Below are positions 18,107-46,753 of a stretch of DNA of 64,000 bases, one piece after another. Numbering within the stretch: the stretch's first letter is position 1; every line of letters begins with the position of its first letter. Where the stretch lies: NCBI GenBank assembly GCA_041652535.1, contig JBAZHB010000001.1:2870-66869 (forward strand). Reading direction: 5' to 3'. The position numbers and the translations under genes were made by a program. Source of the stretch: Candidatus Babeliales bacterium (GTDB taxonomy: Bacteria; Babelota; Babeliae; Babelales; RVW-14). A model generated the notes under the pieces. The model saw nothing but the letters and a program-made list of their open reading frames with translations. It made no database searches and was not told where the DNA came from.

Positions 18107-19288
18107 TTATTGCATTTTTGTCGATAGCTGCGCATAAAGTTCAAGATGCTGCTTGACCATTTTTGTTGTATGAAAATCATCAAGTTGGTCGTTGTAGCCG
18201 TTGAGGCGCGCATACAATTCTTTGTTATGCATGAGCGCGGTGAAATGAGTGGCTAATTCATGCCAGTTACCGGGTGGTACAAGAAGGCCATTGATCTCGT
18301 GAGCAATGACTTCTCTAATGCCTCCAACATCATAAGCAACGATTGGAAGCTTGCAGATTCGTGCTTCAATGATGGTGCAAGGCAATCCTTCCCAAAGCGA
18401 ACTGAGAGCGAAAATATTCCATGTTTCGAGCCATTGGATAACATCTTTTTGCCAGCCTAACAGCGTTATAGCATGTTCCAATTTATGTGCATGTATCCAT
18501 GATTCGATGTCTGATCGCATAATACCGTCACCAATGATTTGTAGCTCAGGTACGATGAGTGTGCTTTTGTTAGCGTAATAGGTTACTTCAAATGCGCGTA
18601 AAAGATCGAATAGATTTTTTTGTGGTTTAAAACACGATATCGTGCCAATAACAAATTTTTTTGTATCAGTATTTATATCAGTAATAGATGTGATAGGGCG
18701 TGCGGTAAGAAATTTTTCTTGTCCAATAGCAGCGCGGATAATTGAACTTTTGCGAGCAAAGCGAGGGAAAAGCTTGCATCCTGTTGCGCGATCATGTTGA
18801 GCAACACAAATAAAATGTGTAGTGATGAGTGAGGTAAAAAATTCGCAAAGGTAAATAAGAGACCAGATGAAACGATTCTGGTAATCATGAAAACCATATC
18901 CATGTATGGTGTGGATACGAAGAGGAATCCGTGCAAAAAAAGCTGCCCAGCGTCCTATAATTCCTGCTTTGGTGCTGTGGGTATGAACAATGAGATGTTC
19001 ATGTTGCTTTTTAAGCTTACGAAGTAATTTGATGAGGTGAACAAGGGTGCGTAGTTCGTTGAAGATAGACGAAATACGCACTTCGCGTTTGAAGCTTTCG
19101 ATAAGAACTACTGAATCAAATTTTTGTACTTCATCAACCAGGATGCCTTCTTTGCCAGAGATAAGTGTTGCAGGAACGTGGTGTTGCGCCATGCCATCCA
19201 TGAGCGCAAGGCATACTTTTTGAGCGCCACCAAGTTCAAGTTTTGTGAGTATATAAACGACATGATAAGGGGTTAGATCCATTTCCAT
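18107..19288 (-). CDS. Glycosyltransferase, GT-B fold (family 4 / group 1)
   Basis: N-terminal GGAQKVCLALMDGM. C-terminal EGLPCTIIEARICKLPIVAYDVGGIREVIAHEINGLLV (E-x7-E motif). Start moved to ATG 19288 with a GGAG RBS, which removes the overlap with atpE. Confidence 0.8.
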   Translation of the reverse strand: MEMDLTPYHVVYILTKLELGGAQKVCLALMDGMAQHHVPATLISGKEGILVDEVQKFDSVVLIESFKREVRISSIFNELRTLVHLIKLLRKLKKQHEHLIVHTHSTKAGIIGRWAAFFARIPLRIHTIHGYGFHDYQNRFIWSLIYLCEFFTSLITTHFICVAQHDRATGCKLFPRFARKSSIIRAAIGQEKFLTARPITSITDINTDTKKFVIGTISCFKPQKNLFDLLRAFEVTYYANKSTLIVPELQIIGDGIMRSDIESWIHAHKLEHAITLLGWQKDVIQWLETWNIFALSSLWEGLPCTIIEARICKLPIVAYDVGGIREVIAHEINGLLVPPGNWHELATHFTALMHNKELYARLNGYNDQLDDFHTTKMVKQHLELYAQLSTKMQ

Positions 19289-19320
19289 CTCTCGTTCTCC
19301 TTTATCTGGGGTAGCGTTAT

Positions 19321-20253
19321 TTACATAGTGACTAGCAAGAGACTTATGATAAATCCGTAAATTACGCATGCCTCAATGAGGGCTGCGGCAAGAATTGTTG
19401 GCTTAAAGACTTTTGCATATACCGATGGCTCAATGGCTATTTGGTTGATGCCGCGTGATGAAACATAACCCATTCCTATAGCACTTCCCATGGCGGCGGT
19501 GCCAAGTGTGCAAGCGGCGACAAGTGATCGCAGTGCGTCGGCTTGTCCGTAGATAATAAGAAGCGAGAGTAAAACGCAAAAAACCATAGGCGTTTCGATG
19601 ATGGCTTGATTAAGCAGAGCAAAGGGGAAAAGCCGGTTATAGGCGTTCTTATTGATACCAATTGATGTACATGCGGCGCGTGCAAGGAGCGATTGACCAA
19701 TGGAAGGCCCTATGCATCCAAGAGCAATAACCAAACCTGCCGCAAAAAGCCTAAGGCTGGTATCTGCATCAACTGCTGCAATGAGTTGTGTTTTGAGAAG
19801 GAGCGCAATAATGAGAGAAAAAATTACTGGAGCCTCAATGATTGATTGCGCGATAAGCATAAAAATAATAATTTTTTGAGCAAAAAAAGGTTGGCGTGCT
19901 ATTGATTGTGATGCTGAGCGAACAACAAAACTTGATGCAATGCTGATGGATGCTGCCGCAATTCCAACCGCAAGGCCGATGATAAATTCAACGCGTGCAA
20001 TAGTCCACGTGAGCTCAGGGTAGGAAGCAAATAGGAGTAAAAAGGAAATGACAAGTGAAACAATGGCGCCACTTTCAATAAGCGCAAGCCCAATGATCAT
20101 TGCTCGAAAGGCCTGAGCATTACCGGTTGGCTGACGTATCATGGCATCTTCAACGCCCGATGCTGCTATTCCAAGTCCAATTCCTGCGCCGACGGCGCCA
20201 AGCATAATGGCTAATCCTGCTGAAATGTAGTGGAGCAAAGCGGGAGAAATCAC
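19321..20253 (-). CDS. atpE: F-type ATP synthase subunit c, four tandem hairpins fused in one polypeptide
   Basis: 310 aa, equal to 4 x about 75 aa. Each unit is a Gly/Ala-rich helix, a polar loop (MIRQP, IARQP, IGINKN, IAIEPS) and a helix carrying Glu. The Glu residues are E60 LIESG, E140 IIEAP, E220 IIETP and E294 LIEAC, with codons checked at 20076, 19836, 19596 and 19374. Confidence 0.85.
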   Translation of the reverse strand: MISPALLHYISAGLAIMLGAVGAGIGLGIAASGVEDAMIRQPTGNAQAFRAMIIGLALIESGAIVSLVISFLLLFASYPELTWTIARVEFIIGLAVGIAAASISIASSFVVRSASQSIARQPFFAQKIIIFMLIAQSIIEAPVIFSLIIALLLKTQLIAAVDADTSLRLFAAGLVIALGCIGPSIGQSLLARAACTSIGINKNAYNRLFPFALLNQAIIETPMVFCVLLSLLIIYGQADALRSLVAACTLGTAAMGSAIGMGYVSSRGINQIAIEPSVYAKVFKPTILAAALIEACVIYGFIISLLLVTM

Positions 20254-21095
20254 GTTGCCTCCTTATGGTCATGTGAAGTTTCTTGGTAGATTCCCATGGA
20301 GAGGTAAGTCAGAGTGAGCATGGTAATAACAAATGATTGAATCAATCCTTCACCAATACCGAGTCCTATTTGAAGCCACGAAAATAAAAATAAAATGAAC
20401 ATGAAAACAGACGAAATTTTTTTCAAATAAGGGAAAGAGGCTGCTATTTTGGGGAGGTTTGTTATCCAAGAAAAAATAAGTGTTGCTGCCATGAAAATAA
20501 GAAATATAAGTTTATAACTTCCCAAAAGATCATCGCGCATCATATCGAGAATTACCGCGCCACCAATGATATTGCCAAAAAGACGAAATGACATTGATGC
20601 GATTTTTGAAATCTCTCCCACAATGTGGATTGGTATAAGCACAAAAAATGGTTCAGCGAATTCCTTAAGATAACCTCCTATACCGTGCGCGCTTATTTTT
20701 TGGTATTGCACATAAAGGAAACTGGTGAGTCCTATTGCAAGCGTGGTATTAAGATCCTTGGTTGCTTCAACAAAAAAGGGCAAAACCCCAACAATACAAC
20801 AAAAAAAGGTAAAGAAAAAAATTGAACTAACAAAAGCAAAGTAATGGTATTTGAAGGTGGGGAGCGACTCTTTGCAAAGGTCAGAGAACGTTGAAATCAC
20901 CCATTCGAATCCGGTTGATACAAGATTGGGACCGCGATTGAGGTAATGTCGTCCAATTATGATAAGAAATAACATCGCACCCATGGCCACCCACGTTGCC
21001 ATAAGAATATCAAGGTGCACATCCCAAAAAGATCCGGTAAGCCCGAATATTTTAAAGGGGTGGACGATGGTATAGTCAAAAATCTCAGCACTCAT
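20250..21095 (-). CDS. atpB: F-type ATP synthase subunit a
   Basis: Polytopic membrane protein with the conserved stator-arginine motif SFRLFGNIIGGAVI. Start set to ATG 21095 (MSAEIFDY...), directly after the stop of the upstream small ORF. It has a 4-nt overlap with atpE. Confidence 0.9.
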   Translation of the reverse strand: MSAEIFDYTIVHPFKIFGLTGSFWDVHLDILMATWVAMGAMLFLIIIGRHYLNRGPNLVSTGFEWVISTFSDLCKESLPTFKYHYFAFVSSIFFFTFFCCIVGVLPFFVEATKDLNTTLAIGLTSFLYVQYQKISAHGIGGYLKEFAEPFFVLIPIHIVGEISKIASMSFRLFGNIIGGAVILDMMRDDLLGSYKLIFLIFMAATLIFSWITNLPKIAASFPYLKKISSVFMFILFLFSWLQIGLGIGEGLIQSFVITMLTLTYLSMGIYQETSHDHKEAT

Positions 21096-21367
21096 ACCAA
21101 TTTTTTTGTGTACCTCCAAACTATGAGCCAAAAGCTTGTCATGAATGCAGATGAGCTCCACAAAATATTTAAACCTATGGTTTTTGTGCAAAAAACGAAA
21201 ACAGCGGCTATTAAGCCTAGACTGCCAAGAAAAGAGGTAAGAAGTAAAAAGATTTGGGCGTAAATGTTTCTATTGTTACGCGTTAGATACAAATTGAACC
21301 GTTTGACGAAAAAAAATGCATAAAGCGCTCCAAGCGCGCATCCGAGTATGAGTGAGAACAAAACCAT
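21092..21367 (-). CDS. Small three-TM membrane protein upstream of atpB (AtpI/AtpZ-like by position only)
   Basis: 91 aa with three hydrophobic helices. Its stop abuts the atpB start. No motif-level identification. Confidence 0.4.
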   Translation of the reverse strand: MVLFSLILGCALGALYAFFFVKRFNLYLTRNNRNIYAQIFLLLTSFLGSLGLIAAVFVFCTKTIGLNILWSSSAFMTSFWLIVWRYTKKLV

Positions 21368-26446: not shown

Positions 26447-26518
26447 CAAATACAAGTTTCACTTTTTGCATAGAAATATCGTTTTAGAATTATCAGATCA
26501 TTTTGATGAGATGTGAGT

Positions 26519-26886
26519 TGGTGGAGGCGATGGGAGTCGAACCCATGTCCGCAATATCACGAGCGCCAAGTCCTACGTGCGTATCTCTTGATTATTCTCT
26601 TAAGCAAAAGCAAGAGCACCTGCGCCTAAGAGCCGGTTCAGTATACGGTGTTGGTTACACTCCTGGAAAAGTCTTGCCAACAAGTTCTATCTGGTTAATA
26701 CGAGTGGGTCAGCTGATAGACACGCCAACGTCACAAGAACTTAGCAAAAGCTTATTAAGCGATTGCGTAAGATTGGGCAGATGTGTCTGCACTTATTTGA
26801 TTTGACGGTTTCTTTTACGAGTTTGCCACCAAAACTCGGCACGCACTCAGTTCACGCATTATCACGTCGAGACCAAATACGCCCCC
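26519..26886 (-). ncRNA. ssrA: tmRNA (SsrA)
   Basis: The 5' end is GGGGGCGTATTTGGTCTCGACG. The 3' end is ATGGGTTCGACTCCCATCGCCTCCACCA, with an encoded CCA. The acceptor stem carries the G3:U wobble. An internal tag frame ...ADTSAQSYAIA ends in TAA TAA (26757-26752). Confidence 0.9.
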
Positions 26887-35224: not shown

Positions 35225-35884
35225 TTAGGCTCGCCATACGCTGCTGAGTGGTAATTTTTGTATATCAGCCTTATTCAAGAAGCCTTTAATAGTTATCGTT
35301 TCTTGTGGTTTTATATGATGTCTTGTTGTGCCAACAAGTATGATTCCTGCTGAAAGAAGAATATTAAGGACACCGGGCGCAAATGCATCTTGCATAAAGT
35401 TTATAACTGGTGAACTATGTGAACTACAAATGTGTCTTCCGTCTTCAGTTGAACAACAATGAAAGCCGAATGCTGGAGCATCAATCTCCTTATAGGAAAG
35501 CGCGATATTCATAAGACTTTTTATACCTTCGGCAGGAATGGTGAGTAAGAATAACCCCAGGCATGAAATTCCGAGAATTTTGCAAAGTTTAGCTACTTTG
35601 TAGCGGAGCATATCAGCATTCCAGAGTGATACGTTACCGAGATAAGGAGCTCCGAGAATTACATCATGTTTTGTATTGTTGGCAATGGTTATTTCAACCG
35701 GCACTCTCTTGAATGTTTTCCAGGATGGTTGCCCTGTCTGTTTGACCGTGATGGTGAGTGGTGAAGACGGTTGTTGAGCAGGCGTCTCTGTCTTTGCAAC
35801 AGGTGCCGGAGTTGTAGCCGCCTGTAATCCAACGGTAGCAAGTACCAAAAGGCATGACATGAATACGTGTTTAATATGTGACAT
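35225..35884 (-). CDS. Small exported protein, family X (paralog of 35925-36569)
   Basis: 219 aa. Signal peptide MSHIKHVFMSCLLVLATVGLQAAT. Conserved block TVKQTGQPSWKTFKRVPVEITIANNT, plus an internal hydrophobic segment. Confidence 0.6.
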   Translation of the reverse strand: MSHIKHVFMSCLLVLATVGLQAATTPAPVAKTETPAQQPSSPLTITVKQTGQPSWKTFKRVPVEITIANNTKHDVILGAPYLGNVSLWNADMLRYKVAKLCKILGISCLGLFLLTIPAEGIKSLMNIALSYKEIDAPAFGFHCCSTEDGRHICSSHSSPVINFMQDAFAPGVLNILLSAGIILVGTTRHHIKPQETITIKGFLNKADIQKLPLSSVWRA

Positions 35885-35896
35885 AAAAATCCCCCA
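35815..35896 (-). repeat. 5' cassette B, copy 1 (RBS plus signal-peptide coding region)
   Basis: Aligns with 36501-36580 and 37121-37199, with shared strings such as ...CATGACATGAATA...GTGTTTAA..TGTGACATAA...CCCCCAAA. Confidence 0.8.
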
Positions 35897-35924
35897 AATA
35901 TTATTTGTATAAGATCCCTAAAAA

Positions 35925-36569
35925 TTAACTTTCAATAACAGCCGTTGGTGTTAGCCCATCACGAATTTTTTGCATGTTGCTGGTGCTGATAGAGCCTTGC
36001 ATGGTTATTCTTCCATGAGGTTGGAGAGATTTAGTAGGGAAGGTATGATTCTTGCTATGCATCACTAACAAAAATGCGATCAATGGTGTGTCAAGGGGAC
36101 CAAAAGGATCATATTCAAAAGGGATGAGACTTTTGCTACTACTAGTGTAGTTTAATCGCCCATCTGGTAGAGTTGCACAAGAAGTTTCAGCGATTAGTCC
36201 TGTCGCATCGAGCAATTTCTTTGTAAAGATTTCTAAAATTAGATATGTGTTGATGCTTATAAGTGCAGCACCAGTCAACCATGCAATTCGTGCAATGTAG
36301 CAACCAATTCTTTTGGCGTTCCATAGAGATATGTTTTTTAAATATGGCATAGCAAAATTAATTGTCTTGCCGGTATTATTGGTGACGGTTATTTCAACCG
36401 GCACTCTCTTGAATGTTTTCCAAGATGGAGTTCCAATTTGTTTAACGGTGACAGTGAAAGGCTTAGCCTCTTCTTGCGTGCTTGCAACAGATGCCGGTGT
36501 AGCCGCCTGTAATCCAACGGCAGCGATTGCCAAAAGACATGACATGAATAAGTGTTTAACGTGTGACAT
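35925..36569 (-). CDS. Small exported protein, family X
   Basis: Start at ATG 36569 (MSHVKHLFMSCLLAIAAVGLQAAT) after a GGGGG RBS. Block TVKQIGTPSWKTFKRVPVEITVTNNT. A 36-nt identical block (36387-36422) matches 35687-35722. Confidence 0.6.
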   Translation of the reverse strand: MSHVKHLFMSCLLAIAAVGLQAATPASVASTQEEAKPFTVTVKQIGTPSWKTFKRVPVEITVTNNTGKTINFAMPYLKNISLWNAKRIGCYIARIAWLTGAALISINTYLILEIFTKKLLDATGLIAETSCATLPDGRLNYTSSSKSLIPFEYDPFGPLDTPLIAFLLVMHSKNHTFPTKSLQPHGRITMQGSISTSNMQKIRDGLTPTAVIES

Positions 36570-36580
36570 AATAACCCCCA
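36501..36580 (-). repeat. 5' cassette B, copy 2
   Basis: GCCAAAAGACATGACATGAATAAGTGTTTAACGTGTGACATAATAACCCCCAAA is nearly identical to copy 3. Confidence 0.85.
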
Positions 36581-36627
36581 AAATATTTCTCTAAAATTAT
36601 GATATTACTAGTGACTCATTAAGAGCA

Positions 36628-37188
36628 CTAATTGGTCCAATGAGCTTGCGCTTTAGCAATTGCAGCCTCGACAAAGTTTTTAAGATCTAGAAGCCTATGC
36701 TCGTTGGCATAAGCAGAAATTTTGTCATAGCAGTGCCCGACATTTCTATACATAACATCTGTGCTTACGTAACGGGCAACCGGGTAAGCGCATTGCTGCG
36801 CTTCCTTAAAGAGCGCTTGTTCATAGGTATTCATGGAAGGAGGAACAGGTGAGTTACCCAAAAAGCTTTTTAATGCAGGAACGCAATAAGTACGCATCAC
36901 ATAGAAAGTTGCCATTGCTACGATAGCTGCTGTGGCGGCTATGAGCGGTGTTTTATGCACTTTGGCCCACTTTTTCATGTGCATTACTTTGCCCGAAACG
37001 AATTTTTTCATATGATGTGCTTGAGCCAATAAGCGAATTTTCCATGAAGATATAGCTGTTTGTGGTCCCCATAGCATTTCCCTTGTTTCTCCATGCGATA
37101 TTTCCCATGGTATAGACTCACCCGCATGTAACCCAATGGTAGCAAATGCCAAAAGACATGACATGAATAGATGTTTAACGTGTGACAT
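36628..37188 (-). CDS. Small exported single-TM protein, family Y (paralog of 37205-37951) carrying the family X leader
   Basis: Start at ATG 37188 (MSHVKHLFMSCLLAFATIGLHA). TM segment TPLIAATAAIVAMATFYVM. The C-terminal domain ...YPVARYVSTDV...HCYDKISAYANEHRLLDLKNFVEAAIAKAQAHW is shared with the next gene. Confidence 0.6.
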   Translation of the reverse strand: MSHVKHLFMSCLLAFATIGLHAGESIPWEISHGETREMLWGPQTAISSWKIRLLAQAHHMKKFVSGKVMHMKKWAKVHKTPLIAATAAIVAMATFYVMRTYCVPALKSFLGNSPVPPSMNTYEQALFKEAQQCAYPVARYVSTDVMYRNVGHCYDKISAYANEHRLLDLKNFVEAAIAKAQAHWTN

Positions 37189-37199
37189 AATAACCCCCA
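37121..37199 (-). repeat. 5' cassette B, copy 3 (attached to a non-homologous mature protein)
   Basis: GCCAAAAGACATGACATGAATAGATGTTTAACGTGTGACATAATAACCCCCAAA, with 2 mismatches to copy 2 over this stretch. Confidence 0.85.
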
Positions 37200-37204
37200 A
37201 ACTC

Positions 37205-38156: not shown

Positions 38157-40652
38157 TTATGCAGGGGTTGGTGATTGTTGTGGTGAAGACGGAGCTGGTT
38201 GCTCAAGCGGCTTTTTAGTCGATGGGACATTTTCAGTTGTAGCGACAGCTGCTTCAGATTCTTTTTGTTCCTGTTCTATCGCCTCTTCCTGTGCTTGTTT
38301 AAGCTCCGCATGCTTTGCTTGTTGTTCTTTAATAGCCTCGCCTACCTGATAATAAGGATCATCTTGAATGCTGACGCACTTTGGTTGGCGTTTGCCATAG
38401 GTGAAGTTATCAATAGGACGTAAAATACCGCGTGCAGCATCGTCGATGCGATTTTTGATATTTTGATTGGTTGGCTTAAAGAACCAGCGCTGAATTGGAT
38501 CGCGATCGTTAATGTACGCATCGCTTTTCATAATTTGAAGTTTGGCATAATCAAGTTTGAGCTGAGTATACTCATCAGGCTCGCCTTCAAAACGTGGCTT
38601 GATAACGCTTGGACGGATAAAGACATAGATATTTTGTTCGACTTTATCTTTTTCTTTGAATCTAAATAAATTTCCAATAAGGGGAATGTCGCCAAGAATT
38701 GGGGTTTTATATACCGTTTCAAGCTGATTGCTGGTAACAAAGCCCCCAAGGCCAATGACCTCGCCTGTTCCTATCGCTGCTTTTGTTTTGATTGTTCTAT
38801 TAAGGATGGTTTTGTCAGTTTGTGCTACCTGTGTGTCAACTTCTTTAAATTGATCGAGCTGAAGATCAATATCAAGCGTGATTGTTCCGATCAAATTAAT
38901 ATGAGGAGTAAGTTTAATATCAACGGTAGCAGGAAGATCGACGGTTTTGAGTACAGGAGTTGAGACGTTTTTACTAAAATCCATTCCTCCGGTGACACGT
39001 AATGTTTTTGAAACGAGCACTTCGCAGGTTTGATGGTTGTTAGCAATAACATAAGGTTGTGAGATAATTTGAGCGTTGGTTGCTTGCAATGAGGCAATTA
39101 AAACGCCCCAAATGTTATCGGGCGTTGTTTGTGTCCCTGCTGGTCCAAATGTTGCGGATGAAGGAAAGTATTGACCGGCTGCAAAATCTTTATTGATTTG
39201 CAGAAGCGAGGCATTTGGATTAGTTGTACCATCAATGTTGTTTCTAAATACCGGCATTCCCATGAGTTGTGCAAATCCAGCATTAATATTATGTCCAAGA
39301 GAATGCCCTTTGAGATTACGCATTTGAAAACCAAGCGCTTTTGATTGATTGAGATTAACTTCAACAATCATAACTTCAAGGGCGACCTGGGGTTGCGGTT
39401 TATCAAGCTTATCAATAAAAGATGATATACGTTTCCAATCTTCACGGTTGCAGGCAACGACAAGGCGGTTTCCGTTGCCGTGTTTTGCAGCATCACTTTC
39501 TCCGCTTGTATCTGTCTCTCCTTTAATAAAGACGTCCTCAAAAACCTTATAACCACCTTCCATGACAAGAGCCTTTTCAGCGGTAGTGCCACTTGGTGGT
39601 TGGATTATTTTTTGCAACACCGGTTCAAGGTCTTGGGCGCGTATGTAGCGAAGTTCTCTGACATGAAGACGTGATTCTGCGTTATCGATAGGAACATCGA
39701 TATATTTAGCAATGAAATTTTTGATTTTATCAACGTTTTTATATGCGCCAAGCAGGATAATGGAATTGGTAATTGGCTCCGATAGAACCTTGGTTCCTGT
39801 CGCAAAATAAGCAGCTTCTTTGGGCTGAAGCGCGGAGATTCTGATGACTCGCTGTTGATCAGTTGTTGACTCGGTTCCTAATACTTCATCAAAAAGCTTT
39901 TTGACGTTATCGGCACTTGCAAATTTGAGAGGAATGACCTCAATAGCCTCGCGTAAACCACCTTCATCAAGCTCTTTAACGATGCGCATGGCAGATTTAA
40001 TGTTGAAGCTTTGGTCTTTGATGATACAAAGATTGAGGTCTTTGTTTTCAGTGATGTTTTTATCTTCAATCATTTTTGCCAAAATGGAGTGCGCCGTTTC
40101 AGCTTTTATGTTTTTAAATACGTAGATGTACCGAATAACTTGATCGCTGTGAGGCAGATTTTCAGGTTGCGTCCCACTTTCTGATGAATACAACGGAAGC
40201 GGTTCTTGTCCATTATTTTGGCTTGGTACGACGTAATAAAGGTCGCGGTTGTCTTTGGGGTCGTGTTTTTTGAGCAGCGTAAAATTATTCATTTCAAGAA
40301 GCGTGAGCAGTACGTTCCATGCGCGATCGAGAGTTAAGGGATTATGGGTTGTCAGGCTTACCTTGATGCCCTCAAGATCTTTATTGGGGATAATATTAAT
40401 ATTTTTCTGTTGGCCTAAGCAATACAGAACAGATGAAAGAGATGCATTGTCAAAATTGATGTTTGCTTCATCCAGAGCTTCTTGGTTCTCTTGAGGAGAC
40501 GCAAATGAGCCTACCTGTAAATTCTGTTGTTGAGAATTTATGGATTGTGTTGTTGGGATTTTATTTTCGGTAGCCACATCGGCGCTGCAAAAATGTACCG
40601 AAGAAAAAGCTACGAAGAATAAAAAATAAAGGTGTCTTGAGACTTTTGCCAT
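38157..40652 (-). CDS. gspD: Secretin (GspD/PilQ family), copy 2
   Basis: 831 aa. Signal peptide. N0-like NINFDNASLSSVLYCLGQQKNINIIPNKDLEGIKVSL. Secretin core PQVALEVMIVEVNLN and TPILGDIPLIGNLFRFKEKD...IYVFIRPSVIKP, followed by a roughly 190-aa C-terminal extension. Confidence 0.9.
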   Translation of the reverse strand: MAKVSRHLYFLFFVAFSSVHFCSADVATENKIPTTQSINSQQQNLQVGSFASPQENQEALDEANINFDNASLSSVLYCLGQQKNINIIPNKDLEGIKVSLTTHNPLTLDRAWNVLLTLLEMNNFTLLKKHDPKDNRDLYYVVPSQNNGQEPLPLYSSESGTQPENLPHSDQVIRYIYVFKNIKAETAHSILAKMIEDKNITENKDLNLCIIKDQSFNIKSAMRIVKELDEGGLREAIEVIPLKFASADNVKKLFDEVLGTESTTDQQRVIRISALQPKEAAYFATGTKVLSEPITNSIILLGAYKNVDKIKNFIAKYIDVPIDNAESRLHVRELRYIRAQDLEPVLQKIIQPPSGTTAEKALVMEGGYKVFEDVFIKGETDTSGESDAAKHGNGNRLVVACNREDWKRISSFIDKLDKPQPQVALEVMIVEVNLNQSKALGFQMRNLKGHSLGHNINAGFAQLMGMPVFRNNIDGTTNPNASLLQINKDFAAGQYFPSSATFGPAGTQTTPDNIWGVLIASLQATNAQIISQPYVIANNHQTCEVLVSKTLRVTGGMDFSKNVSTPVLKTVDLPATVDIKLTPHINLIGTITLDIDLQLDQFKEVDTQVAQTDKTILNRTIKTKAAIGTGEVIGLGGFVTSNQLETVYKTPILGDIPLIGNLFRFKEKDKVEQNIYVFIRPSVIKPRFEGEPDEYTQLKLDYAKLQIMKSDAYINDRDPIQRWFFKPTNQNIKNRIDDAARGILRPIDNFTYGKRQPKCVSIQDDPYYQVGEAIKEQQAKHAELKQAQEEAIEQEQKESEAAVATTENVPSTKKPLEQPAPSSPQQSPTPA

Positions 40653-40655
40653 AAG

Positions 40656-41204
40656 CTAATCCACCGGTATTTTAAGTTTTTTTGATGCTAACGTGAGATC
40701 AAAAGTTATTTTTCTATCAGGTTGTGTTCGAATTCGTAATTCCTTAATAGTAACAATATCTTTTTGTGCAAGTGCTGAAAGAATAGCAATAAGATTTTTG
40801 GTTGTTTGATTTTTGAATGTTGCAGGAAGGATAACTTCGTCAAAACGATCATTAACCGGCTCTATATGCGGTTCCCAGCCTGCTTCGGGTGCAATATTTT
40901 GTTCCCGACAAAATTGTTCAAAAAAACTTGCCATCGAAAAGCCTTTATTCTTTTCGATAATGTCGCGAATATGTTGCTCTTCAAGCATCATCTTGCGATT
41001 TTGACCAATTATTGTTGCCGATTTTTCTGAAAGCTTGCCTAAATTAATAGTGTATTGAATAAGAGAAGCTTTCTTTTGGTGAATAATATAAATAAAAAGT
41101 CCCGTAGCAAGCGCAATGCCACCGATTGATAAAAGAAGATATTGTTGAAATTTTTTGCGTGGTAGATCTTGAAGATAGGTAGCAAATTTATTTATTGCAT
41201 CCAT
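40656..41204 (-). CDS. GspM/PilO-like bitopic inner-membrane assembly-platform protein
   Basis: 182 aa. Short cytoplasmic N-terminus, one TM (YLLLSIGGIALATGLFIYII), a coiled segment and a roughly 100-aa C-terminal domain. It sits between the GspL-like gene and a secretin with 3-nt gaps on both sides. Confidence 0.55.
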   Translation of the reverse strand: MDAINKFATYLQDLPRKKFQQYLLLSIGGIALATGLFIYIIHQKKASLIQYTINLGKLSEKSATIIGQNRKMMLEEQHIRDIIEKNKGFSMASFFEQFCREQNIAPEAGWEPHIEPVNDRFDEVILPATFKNQTTKNLIAILSALAQKDIVTIKELRIRTQPDRKITFDLTLASKKLKIPVD

Positions 41205-41207
41205 AAT

Positions 41208-42926
41208 TTAAACTTCTTTTAGTATCAATTTTGCCGTGAAATCAACACCACCATCGGGAGCAGGTGTTGGCTCAATTGCTTCAACAAGTCTGAGTAAATT
41301 TGATTCCTTAAAACGACTTTCAAAAGGGGCAAACGCTGTAAAATGATCCCCATTTTTGGATTTAAAGAGAGCATCGATTTCAATTTTTGGTGTTCCGATA
41401 TCCGATTTATCAGCATCGTTTTCAGTACGGCCCCATTGTTTTTCTAAAGTGGTAAAGGTTGCTTCTTTGATGGTTACATCAAACTGTTTTTTATCAATAA
41501 TGCGGGTGATTTCAAGAAGAAGCTCAAGCGGTTCCATTGGCTTTTGAATGAGGGGGGCCCATGTTTCATATTTTTGTTGTACCACGCGTTCTGCTTCCTT
41601 GATGACCCCAACAAAAGTGCTCTTTGAAGCGATTTGGGCTGCTGTTAAAATATTATCGCTGCGTAATCGTTCAATTTCTTTGGTTTCGAATGCATTTATA
41701 CGCGAGGAGAGGCGAGCAATATCTAGATAGCCATTGATACCAATTGCAGTAAATAATGCGATTGCTAATATGCCGGCAGTTACAATTTGTTGAGAGGCCA
41801 GATTTTTGTGGCGGAAAGCAAATTGCTTACGACGGAGATCAAAATTTTGTTGATCTGGCGATGGAAGCGCAACGCCGAGCGCTGTTGAAAATTGCGCCCA
41901 ATTACTTATCTGTTCACTAATTTTGTCTTTAAATGTTGATCCTGCAAAAAGCTTTCTGCAGTTAAAAAATTCACACGGTATCTGCATGGTGTCACTGCAA
42001 AAGGTCATGAGATCGGGAATCTGGTTCCCTTGGCCGGTAAAAAGAACTTTACTAACGCCATCATAAAATCCGAGTTTAAGACTAAACGAATTAAGCGTGA
42101 ATTGTATCTCATTTAAGAGAAGAACAAAGTGCTTTTGTACAATACGCGTAAGCGTTTCATCGCCAAGTGATCGTATGCCGCTGGACGTTAATTTTTTAAG
42201 AATTTCTTCTGGTGATACTAATGTTTCTTCGCCAATCAGTTTAAGAACCGTTGTAAGGCCTCGTGGAATGTATCGCGTAAGACGTAATTGCCCCTCTTGT
42301 ACTAATGCGATGCGTGTAGTGTGTGCATCAAATTCAACTAAGGCGCTTGCATTGGGAAGTGTGCGATATTCAGGAATTTGTTGATATAAACTGTACAGCG
42401 CAAAAAGATCAATGGTGATTGCTGAAGGATCGATACCGGCCTTTTCATAAATCGAAAGATGCGTTTGAAGATCTTGCGTTCTTACTGCGGCAACCAAAAT
42501 TTGTGTTGTTTTTTGATCGGATTGTTTCTTGGTGATAATGAAGTCAACAATTGCTTCGTTAATAGAAAAGGGGAGCATTGTTTCAATTTCATAATCAAGA
42601 ACCATGCGAATTTTTTCAGGATCGCTGAATTGTAGTTGAAGCTCTTTAAATACAACGATTGAAGCAGGAATGCAGGCGCGGATAAGGTCATAAGATTTTA
42701 TACCGGACATCATTTGTTTAAGGGCTTGCGCAGTACGATCGGCAAGATCTTGTTCGCTGCCAGGTACAAGAGGTTCTTGTTTCAGATGTTCAACAACATT
42801 TTTGCCATGTTTGGCGTGAACGAGCGCAAGCGTAACATGCGTATCATGACATGCGATACCAATAACACGTTGTGCAAGAATTCTGTGCGTCCCAAGCATT
42901 TCAGGTAAAAATATTTCCTTTATCAT
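41208..42926 (-). CDS. PilM-PilN fusion / GspL-like assembly-platform protein
   Basis: 572 aa. The roughly 380-aa cytoplasmic domain has actin-like/PilM-type character (VIGIACHDTHVTLALV..., AITIDLFALYSLY, ALVEFDAHTTRIALV). One TM (IVTAGILAIALFTAIGINGYL) and a roughly 170-aa periplasmic domain. It has an ATGA overlap with secretin 1. Confidence 0.65.
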   Translation of the reverse strand: MIKEIFLPEMLGTHRILAQRVIGIACHDTHVTLALVHAKHGKNVVEHLKQEPLVPGSEQDLADRTAQALKQMMSGIKSYDLIRACIPASIVVFKELQLQFSDPEKIRMVLDYEIETMLPFSINEAIVDFIITKKQSDQKTTQILVAAVRTQDLQTHLSIYEKAGIDPSAITIDLFALYSLYQQIPEYRTLPNASALVEFDAHTTRIALVQEGQLRLTRYIPRGLTTVLKLIGEETLVSPEEILKKLTSSGIRSLGDETLTRIVQKHFVLLLNEIQFTLNSFSLKLGFYDGVSKVLFTGQGNQIPDLMTFCSDTMQIPCEFFNCRKLFAGSTFKDKISEQISNWAQFSTALGVALPSPDQQNFDLRRKQFAFRHKNLASQQIVTAGILAIALFTAIGINGYLDIARLSSRINAFETKEIERLRSDNILTAAQIASKSTFVGVIKEAERVVQQKYETWAPLIQKPMEPLELLLEITRIIDKKQFDVTIKEATFTTLEKQWGRTENDADKSDIGTPKIEIDALFKSKNGDHFTAFAPFESRFKESNLLRLVEAIEPTPAPDGGVDFTAKLILKEV

Positions 42927-45601
42927 GCAGGCGCCTTCGTTGTTTCAGTTTTGCCCGATAAAAATTCTTTCAACACGTTGCGCTTTTCTGTTGTTATCTG
43001 TTCAGCTGTTGGTGATGTTGACGGTTTTGCATCTGGCGATGGTCTTGGTGTTGGTTGTGGTTGGTTTTTTTGAGGTGCAATTGATAAAGGATTGGTTGAA
43101 AGAAGATCTTTAAGCTTTTGACGTCGTTCTGAAAGGTCTTGTTCATTTACCGTAACAGCAGGTTGCAAAGGTACAGAAACTTCATTTTTTGTTATGGCCA
43201 AAGTTTGCGGTTGTTCTGGTTGTGGCGTTGCAGGAAGCGCAGCTTGTTGAAATTGTTCTACCGAAAGTGTAGGTGATTTTTGTATGTCTGCTACGTTTTC
43301 TTCTTCCTTGGTTGAAAGCGCTCGATAATAAGGATCATTCCTAAGATCAACCGTAGTTGGTTGATAGCGTGCATTTGCAAAGTCGATAACCTTATGTGAA
43401 TAATTTTCTGGTCGGTTATCTGGTGGAAGTTTAGGGTTAAAGAACCAGTTATGCATTGGATCAAGCGTGTGTTTAGTTTCTACAGCTTGTTCGATATCTT
43501 CAGTGGCCTGATGTAATTTCATCTTAGTATAAAGCTGCATACCTGGAGTTTGGCGAGGTTTGATGATAGTAGGTGACATGAAAACGAAAATATATTGTTT
43601 TGTGGTTCGGCGTTGTTGACGCTTAAAGAACCATCCAAGAACCGGAATGTCGCCAAGTATTGGAGTTTTTGCTTTAAATTCATCAACACGCGTTTGTACA
43701 AAGCCGCCAAGAACTAAAACTTGTCCATCTGCCACGCTGACATTGGTTTTTACCTTTCGCTCATTTCTGGCGTTATTGGCAGAAGATGGATCAAATTCAT
43801 TTATATCAACGGTAACATCAAGTCGAACAATACCATCGAGGTTAATCTGTGGAACCAGTGAAATATTGGTAATTGCGCCCAAAGAGGTAAAACCCTGAAT
43901 GGTGCCCGAGTTGGCAGAATCTTGTACAACTTGGCGCGTTTCACCTAATGCCAATGTGGCGGTTGTTTTATTGGCAGCGATAATAAAAGGTTGCGATAAA
44001 ATTGAAGTATTTGCTTCTTGGTTAATAGATTCAAGAAAAGCCCAGACGTTTTTTTGTGGGCCAAAGGTTAACACCGTTTGTCCAACTTGATTGGTAATTT
44101 GGTCAAGCATGTTACCAAGAATACTGATAGGGGTTCCGCCTGTATCGAATGCTGGTTGATATTCAAGGAAAGGTGTTGTGGTTGGCAACGAGCCATGTGC
44201 ATCAATGTTCTTGCCAAGGACTCCATGATGCTTGTTGCGTATCATGCCGCCAAGTTCTTTGAGATGATCGGCACCAATGCTAACAATGAAAATTTCAAGC
44301 GCTACTTGCGGCTGTGGTTTATCAAGATCATCAAGTGTCTTTTTTAATAATTTCCAATCCTGTTTATCAACACAGGAAATAAGTAATCGATTGCCATCGG
44401 TATCAACTTGAAACGTCATATTTCTAAAATATTTTACGCCACCGCGAATAGAACCATATTTGCCTGCTGCTTGCCCTGATGTGCTATCGGGAGTTTTGGT
44501 GACTTCAGTAAGAATTTCGGCAGCTTGTTTAGCGTCAATATGTTGAAGCTCATATACGTGAAGAGGCGATGCTGCTGATTCAAGGTCGGTATCGATGTGT
44601 TTAGTCATGAAATCGATGATCTTTTCGATCGATTTATTATTGCCCATAAGAATCAGCGAATTGGTTCTTTCTTCGGCAATGACTTTGGTTGTTGAAGAAA
44701 AATATTTTTTACCGCCTTCTGCTGCTTTACCAAGTAGTCGTGCCAATGGGTTGTTGTCAGTTGAGTCTTTGATTAAAGAATCAAGAAGCGTTTTTGCATC
44801 AGTTGCGTTGACGCGTTTAAGACGGAGAACGGTGACCGTTTCAGGTAAGCCCATTTGATCAAGCTCGGTCAAAAGTTTTGCTGCAGCTTTAATGTTGTAT
44901 GATTTGTCGGCCAGGATGAAAGCATTCATATCAGCTTGATCGTGAATGGCACTTTGAGCACTGAGCATGCTTTCAACAATTGGTCGTACTGAAGTTACTT
45001 GGATATTGGTTAAAAACATTACATAGCGGATGGTTTCATCGCTATCCGGTAGCTGTGAATAAGGGGTATTAATGAAGGCAGGTAACGGCTGATTGAGTTT
45101 TTTATCTTTAGGAAGGATGACATGGATGTCGCCCTTCTGGACGATTGCAAAGCCGGCCATATCAAGAACCGTTTGCGAAATATTCCATGCACCATCTACA
45201 GAAAGTGGTTCGCGAATAGTAAGTGAGATTTTTGAGCCTTCTATACTCTTATCGGGAATGATATTGATTTTTTTAAGTTCAGCGAGCCAATTAGCAAAAC
45301 TTAAAAGATCTCCATTTTCAAAATTCAAATAAATGTCTTTTTTCTCTGTGCTGTTATCAGTTTTCTCGGTTGTTGGTTGTCCTGGCACCATTGGTGCTGG
45401 AAGTTGAGGCGCAATACTGGTTGTTTGAAGAATTTGATCAATAGGTTGTTGAGCAGTTGCTATAGGTGCGACTACTGCTGCAGGTAGTGGCACTGCCATG
45501 ATGGGAGTTTGTTCTTCTGTTGAAAACCCTATCGTAGGAGTGCACATGCATAATACGAAAGGAAGCGCGATAATGTAACGTAAGTTGAAAAACTTTCTCA
45601 T
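42923..45601 (-). CDS. gspD: Secretin (GspD family), copy 1
   Basis: 892 aa. Signal peptide. N0 domain DIYLNFENGDLLSFANWLAELKKINIIPDKSIEGSKISL. Core PQVALEIFIVSIGAD and TPILGDIPVLGWFFKRQQRR...IFVFMSPTIIKP, followed by a roughly 220-aa P/Q-rich C-terminal extension. Confidence 0.92.
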   Translation of the reverse strand: MRKFFNLRYIIALPFVLCMCTPTIGFSTEEQTPIMAVPLPAAVVAPIATAQQPIDQILQTTSIAPQLPAPMVPGQPTTEKTDNSTEKKDIYLNFENGDLLSFANWLAELKKINIIPDKSIEGSKISLTIREPLSVDGAWNISQTVLDMAGFAIVQKGDIHVILPKDKKLNQPLPAFINTPYSQLPDSDETIRYVMFLTNIQVTSVRPIVESMLSAQSAIHDQADMNAFILADKSYNIKAAAKLLTELDQMGLPETVTVLRLKRVNATDAKTLLDSLIKDSTDNNPLARLLGKAAEGGKKYFSSTTKVIAEERTNSLILMGNNKSIEKIIDFMTKHIDTDLESAASPLHVYELQHIDAKQAAEILTEVTKTPDSTSGQAAGKYGSIRGGVKYFRNMTFQVDTDGNRLLISCVDKQDWKLLKKTLDDLDKPQPQVALEIFIVSIGADHLKELGGMIRNKHHGVLGKNIDAHGSLPTTTPFLEYQPAFDTGGTPISILGNMLDQITNQVGQTVLTFGPQKNVWAFLESINQEANTSILSQPFIIAANKTTATLALGETRQVVQDSANSGTIQGFTSLGAITNISLVPQINLDGIVRLDVTVDINEFDPSSANNARNERKVKTNVSVADGQVLVLGGFVQTRVDEFKAKTPILGDIPVLGWFFKRQQRRTTKQYIFVFMSPTIIKPRQTPGMQLYTKMKLHQATEDIEQAVETKHTLDPMHNWFFNPKLPPDNRPENYSHKVIDFANARYQPTTVDLRNDPYYRALSTKEEENVADIQKSPTLSVEQFQQAALPATPQPEQPQTLAITKNEVSVPLQPAVTVNEQDLSERRQKLKDLLSTNPLSIAPQKNQPQPTPRPSPDAKPSTSPTAEQITTEKRNVLKEFLSGKTETTKAPA

Positions 45602-45625
45602 AGCCTTTCTTCCCTGGTCAACCCT

Positions 45626-46753
45626 TTATTGGCGATTTTGGAAGCGTCGTTGTAAATTTTCAAGTATTCGTTGTCGTATAGCCATCATCGATTGTTGATG
45701 CTTTTCGTTGTCGGGATGGAGCCGATTAAAATCTCGTAACGTCTGTTCACGTTGTTGCACACGATTCATTGGCAACTGTTCTGTGGGCTTTGCAGGCGCT
45801 GCAAGCCCTGGAAATACGGTACGTCGAGGGGGCTCAAGTTTAGCAAGTCTGTACGATAAAGAAATATCTTTATCAGCACGTTTAAGATCAAGCTTTATGG
45901 AGCTGCCAAGAGGAAGCTGTGTTATATCTTCATAAATTTTTAATCTATTTTCTTGTTCGACGGTGGATATTCCATTAATTGCAGTAATGATATCATTTTC
46001 AGCCAAGCCGAGCGATGTTGCGATGAGTTCTTTTTCAGGTTTCCCTAAGCGTAGACCAATTGGTTTGCCTTCGCGATAGGTAGCGCCTATTAAACTAATT
46101 TCTTCAATCAGGTGGCCGAGCGTTTGAATTTCTTTTGCAAATCGGTGTGGATCAATTTCAAATGTTTGGTCGTCGATTTTTTTGACCGTGTATTTCCAGC
46201 GATCGGCAAAATGTTGTTCGTCGGGTACATCGTCTTTGCGTAAATAAAATGTTTCTTGTTGCCCGTTGGAACGTAGGAGGATCACACGGTTATTGGCGAT
46301 CTTAATAATCTGAGCGTCTTTAATTTTTTCACCGACGCGATAAATGCTTTCTGCATTGGTTTCATCTGCGATCATGGCAACATTTTTTGATTCATCACCA
46401 CCAGCAATAATGCCATGTATGGTAATGGAGAGTGGTGCTATAAATTCGACTTTTGGACTTTCAGGAATTGGTGGTGTTAATGGTATTGGGGGTTCAGGGA
46501 TTGGAGAAATAAGACTTTGCTTTGATGGCTTTGATTCATCTTGGAAAAAGGTGCCAAAAATATCGTCTTGATAGATTTCATTCCACAGGGCTTGTGCCTC
46601 AGCGGTCTCTTTTTTTTTTTCGGGTTCGGTTGGTTGAGGGATTTGATGTGTAGATAATAATGGAGCATCTTGGCGTACAAGTTGATAACCAAGTAACGAG
46701 GCTATAAAAATTGCCAGGAGTGCGCTGTTGGCTAACCACAGGTCCTGTTTCAT
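45626..46753 (-). CDS. gspC: Type II secretion system protein C-like (TM + HR/PilP-like domain + PDZ)
   Basis: 375 aa. N-terminal TM LANSALLAIFIASLLGY and a Pro-rich linker. HR-like LSITIHGIIAGGDESKNVAMIADETNAESIYRVGEKIKDAQIIKIANNRVILL. PDZ-like GLRLGKPEKELIATSLGLAENDIITAINGIS...GSSIKLDLKR. Confidence 0.75.
   Translation of the reverse strand: MKQDLWLANSALLAIFIASLLGYQLVRQDAPLLSTHQIPQPTEPEKKKETAEAQALWNEIYQDDIFGTFFQDESKPSKQSLISPIPEPPIPLTPPIPESPKVEFIAPLSITIHGIIAGGDESKNVAMIADETNAESIYRVGEKIKDAQIIKIANNRVILLRSNGQQETFYLRKDDVPDEQHFADRWKYTVKKIDDQTFEIDPHRFAKEIQTLGHLIEEISLIGATYREGKPIGLRLGKPEKELIATSLGLAENDIITAINGISTVEQENRLKIYEDITQLPLGSSIKLDLKRADKDISLSYRLAKLEPPRRTVFPGLAAPAKPTEQLPMNRVQQREQTLRDFNRLHPDNEKHQQSMMAIRQRILENLQRRFQNRQ
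46610..46620 (-). repeat. A11 homopolymer (T11 on the + strand) inside the gspC-like CDS
   Basis: Read directly. It encodes E-K-K-K-E (GAA AAA AAA AAA GAG) near codon 45. Confidence 0.95.

Follow-up and report, generated by a model that had tools for sequence, protein, structure and literature searches.

What kind of rotor does a bacterium build when the gene directly downstream of subunit a of its ATP synthase encodes a protein of 310 amino acids? This question is raised by a 64,000-nucleotide stretch of DNA from a Candidatus Babeliales bacterium (assembly GCA_041652535.1, contig JBAZHB010000001.1, positions 2,870 to 66,869 of the forward strand; hereafter the window), in which an initial annotation, made from the sequence alone, had read the open reading frame (ORF) following atpB as four fused F-type c hairpins. 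The number of c hairpins and of the carboxylates that they carry sets the ion/ATP ratio of rotary ATPases, and in the textbook account a synthase becomes a V-type pump when its c hairpin is multiplied and sites are lost; fewer ions then move per ATP, which is the accepted reason for such fusions. As detailed below, the reading frame, Pfam profiles, conservation, AlphaFold2 modelling and the ratio of nonsynonymous to synonymous substitutions (dN/dS) identify this ORF, here called c4, as a genuine F-type c subunit, belonging to the rotor of an F1Fo ATPase and with eight transmembrane helices in one chain.

The c4 gene occupies positions 19321..20253 on the reverse strand and consists of 310 uninterrupted codons plus the stop, beginning with a GTG at 20253. 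A Shine-Dalgarno sequence (AAGGAGG, 20258..20264, reverse strand) can be read 4 nt 5' of this start codon. Moreover, the GTG and the TGA stop codon of subunit a share the tetranucleotide GTGA at positions 20250-20253, an overlapping stop/start arrangement which indicates that translation of c4 is coupled to that of subunit a. A promoter and terminator scan around these genes returned nothing above chance.

The profile search that the initial annotation had proposed as a check of its reading bears it out: Pfam ATP-synt_C (PF00137) matches c4 in four separate stretches (E = 6e-38), and the best matches are to NCBIfam models of F0F1 subunit C (1e-30 to 1e-24, again four stretches each). Profiles of V-type K subunits reached 1.6e-16 or worse, far under their cut-offs; these weak matches and the neighbouring F-type subunit a argue that c4 is not a V/A-type proteolipid. 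Assignment to the N-ATPases was considered and rejected as well, since c4 scores 81.8 bits with TIGR03322 against a cut-off of 130.85 and its gene order differs from the beta, epsilon, I, R, a, c, b, alpha, gamma order of that group.

All four hairpins can be delimited in the protein and on the reverse strand of the window. Hairpin 1 (amino acids 1-78, 20020..20253), the most canonical of the four, contains the loop MIRQP and residue E60 (GAA codon, 20074-20076) within GLALIESG. Hairpin 2 (amino acids 81-157, 19783..20013) has the loop IARQP and E140 (codon 19834-19836) within QSIIEAP, with a proline two positions after the glutamate. In hairpin 3 (amino acids 161-237, 19543..19773), the loop is IGINKN, without RQP, and E220 (codon 19594-19596) lies within AIIETP and forms part of a Q187...E220-T221 motif. 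Hairpin 4 (amino acids 238-310, 19324..19542) carries the loop IAIEPS and E294 (codon 19372-19374) within ALIEAC..Y. The four loops and the four glutamate codons, which had been placed at 20076, 19836, 19596 and 19374, are thus as first described; the RQP loop occurs in hairpins 1 and 2 only.

To what extent are these features shared with other c subunits and with homologues of c4? In a MAFFT alignment, the four hairpins are in register with the c subunits of I. tartaricus, Bacillus PS3 and E. coli, with all carboxylates in one column, so that E60, E140, E220 and E294 coincide with D61 of E. coli and E65 of I. tartaricus. Among 121 aligned homologues, the glutamate is present at the position of E60 in 121, of E140 in 119, of E220 in 118 and of E294 in 120. 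R40 and Q41 are invariant together with E60 in hairpin 1, as are R120 and P122 in hairpin 2, Q187 and T221 in hairpin 3, and Y299 in hairpin 4. Hairpins 1 and 2 show no variation in the RQP loop; at the corresponding place, hairpins 3 and 4 have G.NK.. and ..P.., respectively. The linkers between the hairpins are short and conserved in length. In comparison with a 95%-identical homologue, dN/dS is 0.03 overall and 0.02-0.04 for the individual hairpins, which places all four hairpins, as judged from their codons, under purifying selection. Pairwise local scores among the four hairpins of c4 (72-94, compared with self scores of about 350) reveal that they have diverged strongly from each other, from which it follows that the fusion is old and its units are specialised.

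This specialisation extends to the ion-binding sites. Each hairpin has a conserved signature of its own in the family (GLALIESG, QSIIEAP, A.IETP and AfIEs..IY for hairpins 1 to 4), and on this basis the four sites are non-equivalent, as had been suspected from the residues following the glutamates. These residues are E-S, E-A, E-T and E-A in the window, in agreement with the original reading, yet this series does not extend to the family, where hairpin 4 usually has E-S (103/121). In contrast, the likening of hairpins 1 and 3 to Na+-binding c subunits on the basis of their E-S and E-T dipeptides could not be upheld. At the position of the helix-1 glutamine, hairpins 1, 2 and 4 of the window protein have L, S and M, respectively, and hairpin 3 is alone in possessing the full Q...ET; by these motifs, the E-S or E-T dipeptide alone is insufficient for a Na+ site.

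An AlphaFold2 model of c4, built from a 56-sequence alignment, is in good agreement with this description: it consists of four helical hairpins (mean predicted local distance difference test score 95.4, predicted template modelling score 0.90), and of its eight transmembrane helices two have a kink, located in one case at the prolines that follow E140 and in the other at G182-P183. When this model was compared with the PDB using Foldseek, the best matches were the double-hairpin c1 of Acetobacterium woodii (4bem_J), NtpK of Enterococcus hirae and the c proteolipids of V-ATPases. Each match spans about 150 of the 310 residues, and no chain covers more than about half of c4; for the V-ATPase proteolipids and NtpK, which match half of the model, the TM-score is 0.76-0.83 when normalised to the target.

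Could such an unusual protein result from four c genes merged by a sequencing or assembly error, or be a decaying pseudogene? We regard this as extremely improbable. The identical protein is encoded in an NCBI metagenome-assembled genome (MFA5305833.1, on an 83-kb contig), in JGI data and in an independent Logan assembly of SRR18595300, hence the fusion is not an assembly or frameshift artefact; together with the low dN/dS, this also removes the reservation that the contig might be chimeric or collapsed. The short linkers of conserved length are equally at odds with a merger or with decay. Furthermore, full-length homologues (310-328 amino acids, 44-96% identity) numbered more than 120 in a database search, and the named ones belong to Babeliales, Dependentiae or TM6. 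The same fusion is thus found in related genomes, and an exhaustive search among representatives of 50%-identity clusters gave 628 matches, 122 of them at E <= 1e-30, almost all 308-325 amino acids long and aligned end-to-end. From these sequences, the four-hairpin c is conserved over a large part of the phylum Dependentiae.

MFA5305833.1 is annotated plainly as "ATP synthase F0 subunit C", and no description of an F-type four-hairpin c, or of a long c in Dependentiae, was found in the literature searched; an earlier mention may exist elsewhere. The genome papers on Dependentiae and their supplements contain general statements ("encode an ATP synthase") and do not mention a long c subunit. In addition, an AlphaFold survey of c-ring sizes excluded sequences longer than 250 amino acids (bioRxiv 10.1101/2024.02.27.582367).

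The partner of c4 at this locus is a canonical F-type subunit a. atpB (20250..21191, reverse strand; Pfam ATP-synt_A, 5.5e-33) encodes the essential arginine in SFRLFGN and an E-x3-Q in the last helix; its true start probably lies near 21161, since the Logan assembly calls the gene at 303 amino acids. a and c4 are adjacent in about 39 loci, comprising the window, the UASB124 genome and those GTDB loci that reach far enough upstream, and the subunit a paired with c4 carries RLFGN in 39/39 loci and E-x3-Q-[AS]-F-V in its last helix. As a separate observation, the spacing between the arginine of RLFGN and the glutamine of the last helix, determined in those of the loci L001-L040 in which both motifs were found, is 81 residues in 30/35, 82 in three and 50 in two, compared to 42 in E. 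coli, so that the H5-H6 hairpin, which faces the ring, is longer by a hydrophobic insert of about 39 residues.

Upstream of atpB, a 91-amino-acid ORF (21092..21367, reverse strand), apparently hydrophobic and without a Pfam or NCBIfam match, may encode a putative AtpI-like assembly factor; a similar small ORF of 81-113 amino acids is present 5' of atpB in a subset of relatives (L004, L005, L006, L001 and L037). Directly 3' of c4 lies a GT4-family glycosyltransferase gene (18107..19369, reverse strand; Glycos_transf_1, 1.3e-30), whose true start is probably 19288. UASB124 and GW2011_GWF2_37_49 share the order a, c4, GT4 with the window, and so do nearly all of the 37 GTDB species-representative loci that extend far enough, a few of the 37 being cut by contig ends. 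Almost every c4 locus examined, even where c4 identity is as low as 33%, has the GT4 gene next to c4, often with acylphosphatase and BamA genes after it, and this neighbourhood reflects either conserved co-transcription or frozen gene order. Searches using Walker-A and DELSEED motifs and tblastn located none of the F1 and stalk genes b, delta, alpha and beta in the 64-kb window or within 10 kb on either side of the 37 c4 loci.

These observations raised the question of where the remaining subunits are encoded. In a GTDB scan, Dependentiae loci with an ordinary c subunit (c1, 81-98 amino acids) showed the order deoxynucleoside kinase (dNK), c1, a 120-amino-acid ORF (b'), a 165-amino-acid b-like ORF, delta (OSCP) and alpha, at which the operon ends. 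A metagenome scan for the alpha motif of Dependentiae gave 120 loci, in which the c1 cluster was found in all of the approximately 50 with enough upstream sequence, and a and c4 in none. The pattern used, DDIT[AS]YIPTN, missed the c4 clade, whose alpha has DDIS; it yielded the approximately 50 c1 loci and, in addition, operons from Candidatus Cloacimonadota, to which we return below. A search seeded with the alpha of locus L052 likewise returned no contig shared with c4 among its best 120 matches, the c4 clade lying outside those. Co-occurrence was found by searching with the alpha of L139, whose GroEL is closest to that of a c4-bearing genome; one of the matches was P0266.

This match led to the UASB124 genome, which is 99% complete in four contigs (PMC4776705). 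On its contig LDIV01000001.1 (806,336 bp), the a-c4 pair lies at about 482 kb and the c1 cluster at about 769 kb, some 287 kb apart; the latter consists of dNK, c1 (82 amino acids, FVESTAIY), a 118-amino-acid ORF, a 170-amino-acid ORF, OSCP and alpha. In a c4-bearing genome, then, c4 is accompanied by an intact single-hairpin c with its glutamate, by stalk genes and by alpha. The nearest GTDB relative of the window, nzgw203, whose c4 is 95% identical, belongs to the genus UASB124 and the family RVW-14. Two candidate interpretations were discarded in the course of this analysis. An orphan a-c4 pair does not fit the UASB124 contig, which carries c1, the stalk genes and alpha too. Mutual exclusivity of c4 and c1, as seemingly apparent from pattern matches in GTDB, is explained by a c1 pattern which detects 4/50 sequences (about 4/46 Dependentiae c1) and by c4 sequences more diverse than the patterns, and UASB124 has both.

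Several further features of the second locus were recorded. The atp operon of Dependentiae is fragmented (L050-L057 and L059-L183; for instance L179:7453-11512), in that gamma, beta and epsilon never adjoin the c1-alpha cluster and a is elsewhere. In nearly every alpha locus, the gene immediately 5' of c1 is dNK, and the Dependentiae alpha has GNR[NSG]TGKT in place of GDRQTGKT. Flanking synteny (GroEL, aldolase and others) gave only weak hints as to the relative placement of the atp loci. A pair of genes encoding an NTP-transferase/hexapeptide protein and a metallophosphoesterase is located just 3' of alpha in the UASB124 clade (L181:7404-9518, L182:6220-8962) and just 5' of a-c4 in GW2011_GWF2_37_49 (L002:1798-4505), a hint that both atp loci arose from a single ancestral region.

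The presence of a second c gene has direct consequences for the ring. The initial annotation had argued that a covalent tetramer would force the stoichiometry to a multiple of four and thereby fix the ion/ATP ratio genetically; given that UASB124 has a second, single-hairpin c with its glutamate, multiples of four are not implied, and a ring of 4n+m hairpins is possible. What follows on ring composition, copy number, docking role, direction and coupling ion is what we infer from the observations above. We lean, with moderate confidence, towards a heteromeric ring in which c4 and c1 are combined, as in A. woodii, and which would turn against subunit a. This reading is favoured because the gene order of Dependentiae matches that of Cloacimonadota and A. 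woodii and is merely split, and because of a parallel change at the glutamine position in c1 and in hairpin 1 of c4.

This change concerns the residue corresponding to Gln32 of I. tartaricus. Most Dependentiae c1 proteins have Q...E[ST]...Y, a Na+ motif according to the literature, and the glutamine is present in the 54 c1 proteins from outside the UASB124 clade, compared with L, I or M in the three from within it. In c4 of this same clade (44/121, including the window and UASB124), the corresponding residue of hairpin 1 is L. Judging from these sequences, c1 and hairpin 1 of c4 appear to answer to the same ion-site constraint.

A homomeric ring of 2, 3 or 4 copies of c4 (8, 12 or 16 hairpins, with ion/ATP ratios of 2.7, 4 or 5.3), with c1 redundant or used in an alternative ring under other conditions, would account for the translational coupling of c4, and not of c1, to subunit a, and, with all four carboxylates kept, a ring of c4 only would be fully functional. 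We nevertheless consider it rather unlikely. The glutamate of c1 is intact, and c1 is better conserved between lineages than c4 (59-74% versus 26-60% identity). Moreover, c1 heads the series b', b, delta, alpha wherever a sampled locus extends far enough upstream, including that of the c4-bearing UASB124, and the Q-to-hydrophobic change that c1 shares with hairpin 1 of c4 suggests a shared enzyme. Finally, the characterised natural F-type enzymes with two c genes, as well as the Cloacimonadota operon, point to mixed rings.

The separation of a-c4 from all other atp genes, with a glycosyltransferase gene next to it instead of b, would also be compatible with c4 acting outside the rotating ring, either as an F1-independent ion-conducting module formed with a, or as an assembly scaffold absent from the mature ring. 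This appears very improbable. The canonical subunit a next to c4 is the only a gene seen in these Dependentiae loci, and the c1-b'-b-delta-alpha loci have none, so that without it F1Fo would lack its stator channel. Hairpins 1 and 2 have kept the RQP loop that binds F1 without variation, and the four carboxylates are strongly constrained; an uncoupled a-c conductor would, in addition, dissipate the membrane potential.

Within the heteromeric c4-c1 ring that we favour, a and c4 would be made together and the other subunits (c1, b', b, delta and alpha) would be supplied from the second locus. Each of the four glutamates of c4 and each glutamate of c1 would carry one ion per turn; with every site of c4 and c1 carrying an ion, the fusion would come without a lowering of the ion/ATP ratio. 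The RQP loop of c binds the gamma/epsilon foot of F1. Since RQP occurs only in hairpins 1 and 2 of c4, and c1 has the different loops GKYPES or GKKPES, c4 would by inference be the arc of the ring that docks F1, that is, a covalent asymmetric arc docking F1 and/or nucleating the ring. A more specific version is possible, although we hold it with less conviction: one c4 arc, or a fixed small number of them, would provide the sole RQP docking loops and four distinct sites, c1 (with a Na+-type motif in most lineages) would fill the rest, and the fusion would serve docking and assembly rather than gearing, which is the function generally ascribed to multiplied c subunits, with five non-equivalent site types passing subunit a per turn.

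As regards direction, Dependentiae lack an electron transport chain and possess ATP/ADP translocases, and operation of their ATP synthase in reverse has been proposed (PMC4776705; PMC6561590). With no respiratory chain and with imported ATP, the enzyme probably hydrolyses ATP to hold an ion gradient; it would thus work in reverse, pumping ions at the expense of ATP and so sustaining the membrane potential. Many carboxylates per turn would mean more ions per ATP and a lower maximal gradient, the opposite of a V-type pump; we speculate that this may suit a modest potential.

Several points weigh against the mixed ring. c4 and c1 are proven to occur together in UASB124 only, the genome of the window being known over 64 kb. 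c4 was undetected in seven GTDB genomes with matches in the c1 scan, misses which divergent c4 clusters may explain. None of the Dependentiae loci read contained beta, gamma or epsilon, which are taken to be present on the strength of published statements that an ATP synthase is encoded by all TM6 genomes (PMC4776705; PMC6561590). Lastly, the analogy to the characterised hybrid rotors is incomplete, as their multi-hairpin subunits have lost a carboxylate and c4 has not.

Taken together, c4 is a natural, phylum-wide F-type c that has been multiplied four-fold with no site lost and that exists beside a single-hairpin c, and thereby offers a test of what purpose fusion serves without a change in gearing: control of ring size, docking of F1, assembly or mixed ion specificity. 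Should the cultured Dependentiae (Chromulinavorax, Babela and Vermiphilus) carry c4, the ring would be open to direct cryo-electron microscopy. Hybrid rotors may thus extend beyond a few acetogens to Dependentiae and Cloacimonadota, and metagenomes contain F-like c proteins whose hairpins number 3, 4, 5, 7 and at least 11. Among the last, P0415 has five hairpins with five glutamates and F-type RxP loops, P0520 has seven hairpins, and P0436 (968 amino acids) has at least 11 Pfam ATP-synt_C stretches, all with ...VESAAIY, and inner helices rich in Trp; a single glutamate is left in the five hairpins of P0489 and of P0492, and P0502 has four hairpins with three.

Elsewhere in the window, a number of features unrelated to the ATPase were recorded. 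A tmRNA gene (26519-26886, reverse strand) encodes the tag peptide ADTSAQSYAIA, and a 100-amino-acid ORF at 26503-26805 is a spurious frame across it; tRNA genes for Glu(CTC) and Val(GAC) lie at 16889-16960 (forward strand) and 62536-62611 (reverse strand), respectively. Many small secreted ankyrin-repeat-like proteins, typical of host-associated Dependentiae, are encoded at 580-1539, 6465-8864 (four in tandem), 11342-12780 and 17100-17675. Two tandem arrays of paralogues were found, one at 32523-34885 (forward strand) encoding three apparently acetyltransferase-like proteins with signal peptides (273, 252 and 268 amino acids), the other at 35225-37200 (reverse strand) encoding three proteins that share the N-terminus MSHIKH.FMSCLL. 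A type II secretion/type IV pilus-like cluster (38157-46753, reverse strand) includes, as judged from the translations, two genes for secretin-like (GspD-like) proteins, 831 and 892 amino acids long, matching the two gspD copies noted in TM6 genomes (PMC4776705).

How does c4 compare with known multi-hairpin c subunits? The closest likeness is to the F-type Na+ synthases of A. woodii and C. aceticum, in whose operon a is followed by the double-hairpin c1 with one site lost, then by c2 (and c3) and by b onward (PMC7911925), and in the former of which the ring comprises nine single-hairpin subunits and one double (PMC9171764). As in these operons, a multi-hairpin c directly follows atpB in Dependentiae and a separate single-hairpin c precedes b, and it is the A. 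woodii double hairpin that gives the best structural match to the c4 model. The differences are that the A. woodii protein has two hairpins, one of them without its carboxylate (Q...QT), and hence a lower ion/ATP ratio, whereas c4 has four hairpins and has kept 4/4; that the A. woodii operon is intact, whereas that of Dependentiae is split into two distant loci; and that the former belongs to a free-living acetogen, the latter to an ATP-importing parasite.

A second counterpart is provided by the four Candidatus Cloacimonadota operons, which have the order atpI-like, a, c3, c1, b, delta, alpha, gamma in all four cases, followed, as far as the contigs reach, by beta in two and epsilon in one. 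Their c3 (about 250 amino acids; L087:5873-6625, L120:5093-5848, L154:2626-3372 and L163:5634-6389 of the metagenome loci) goes under the plain database name 'ATP synthase F0 subunit C' and gives three Pfam ATP-synt_C stretches, hairpin 3 having retained its glutamate and hairpins 1 and 2 having glutamine instead; the single-hairpin c that follows has 83 amino acids and an E...ESTxxY motif. c3 and c1 of these bacteria probably form an undescribed hybrid rotor. Both phyla have a and a multi-hairpin c ahead of a single c, b, delta and alpha, with the Dependentiae arrangement cut between the two c genes, and they differ in that c3 has lost two of its three carboxylates and c4 none of its four. 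A one-to-one orthology between the hairpins of c4 and those of the Cloacimonadota c3 and c1 was not supported by comparison of hairpin scores, so the two fusions are probably independent.

Natural covalent c multimers similar to c4 are also known from archaeal A-type K subunits, with two hairpins in Methanothermobacter, three in Methanocaldococcus jannaschii and 13 in Methanopyrus kandleri. Every ion site is kept in the Methanothermobacter and M. kandleri proteins (PMC2359735), and the forms listed have 1, 2, 3 or 13 hairpins, four not being among them (PMC9171764). These proteins belong to A/V-type enzymes with other partner subunits, whereas c4 is bacterial and F-type. The c, c' and c'' subunits of V-ATPases and NtpK of E. 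hirae are four-helix double hairpins corresponding to half of the c4 fold, and eukaryotic V-ATPases assemble heteromeric rings in which some members are unique and occur once. These V-type subunits share a single carboxylate between two hairpins, in contrast to one per hairpin in c4, which matches F-type profiles far better than theirs.

Engineered fusions of c (c2 and c3 of E. coli, and single chains from c2 to c10 of Bacillus PS3) reportedly assemble into working rings. Like c4, they are said to link the C-terminus to the next N-terminus on the periplasmic side and to have all carboxylates present; they are, however, artificial chains of identical repeats, whereas the repeats of c4 are natural and strongly diverged. 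Overall, the multi-hairpin subunits of hybrid rotors and of V-type enzymes described in the literature searched have lost carboxylates, and c4 has kept four of four.

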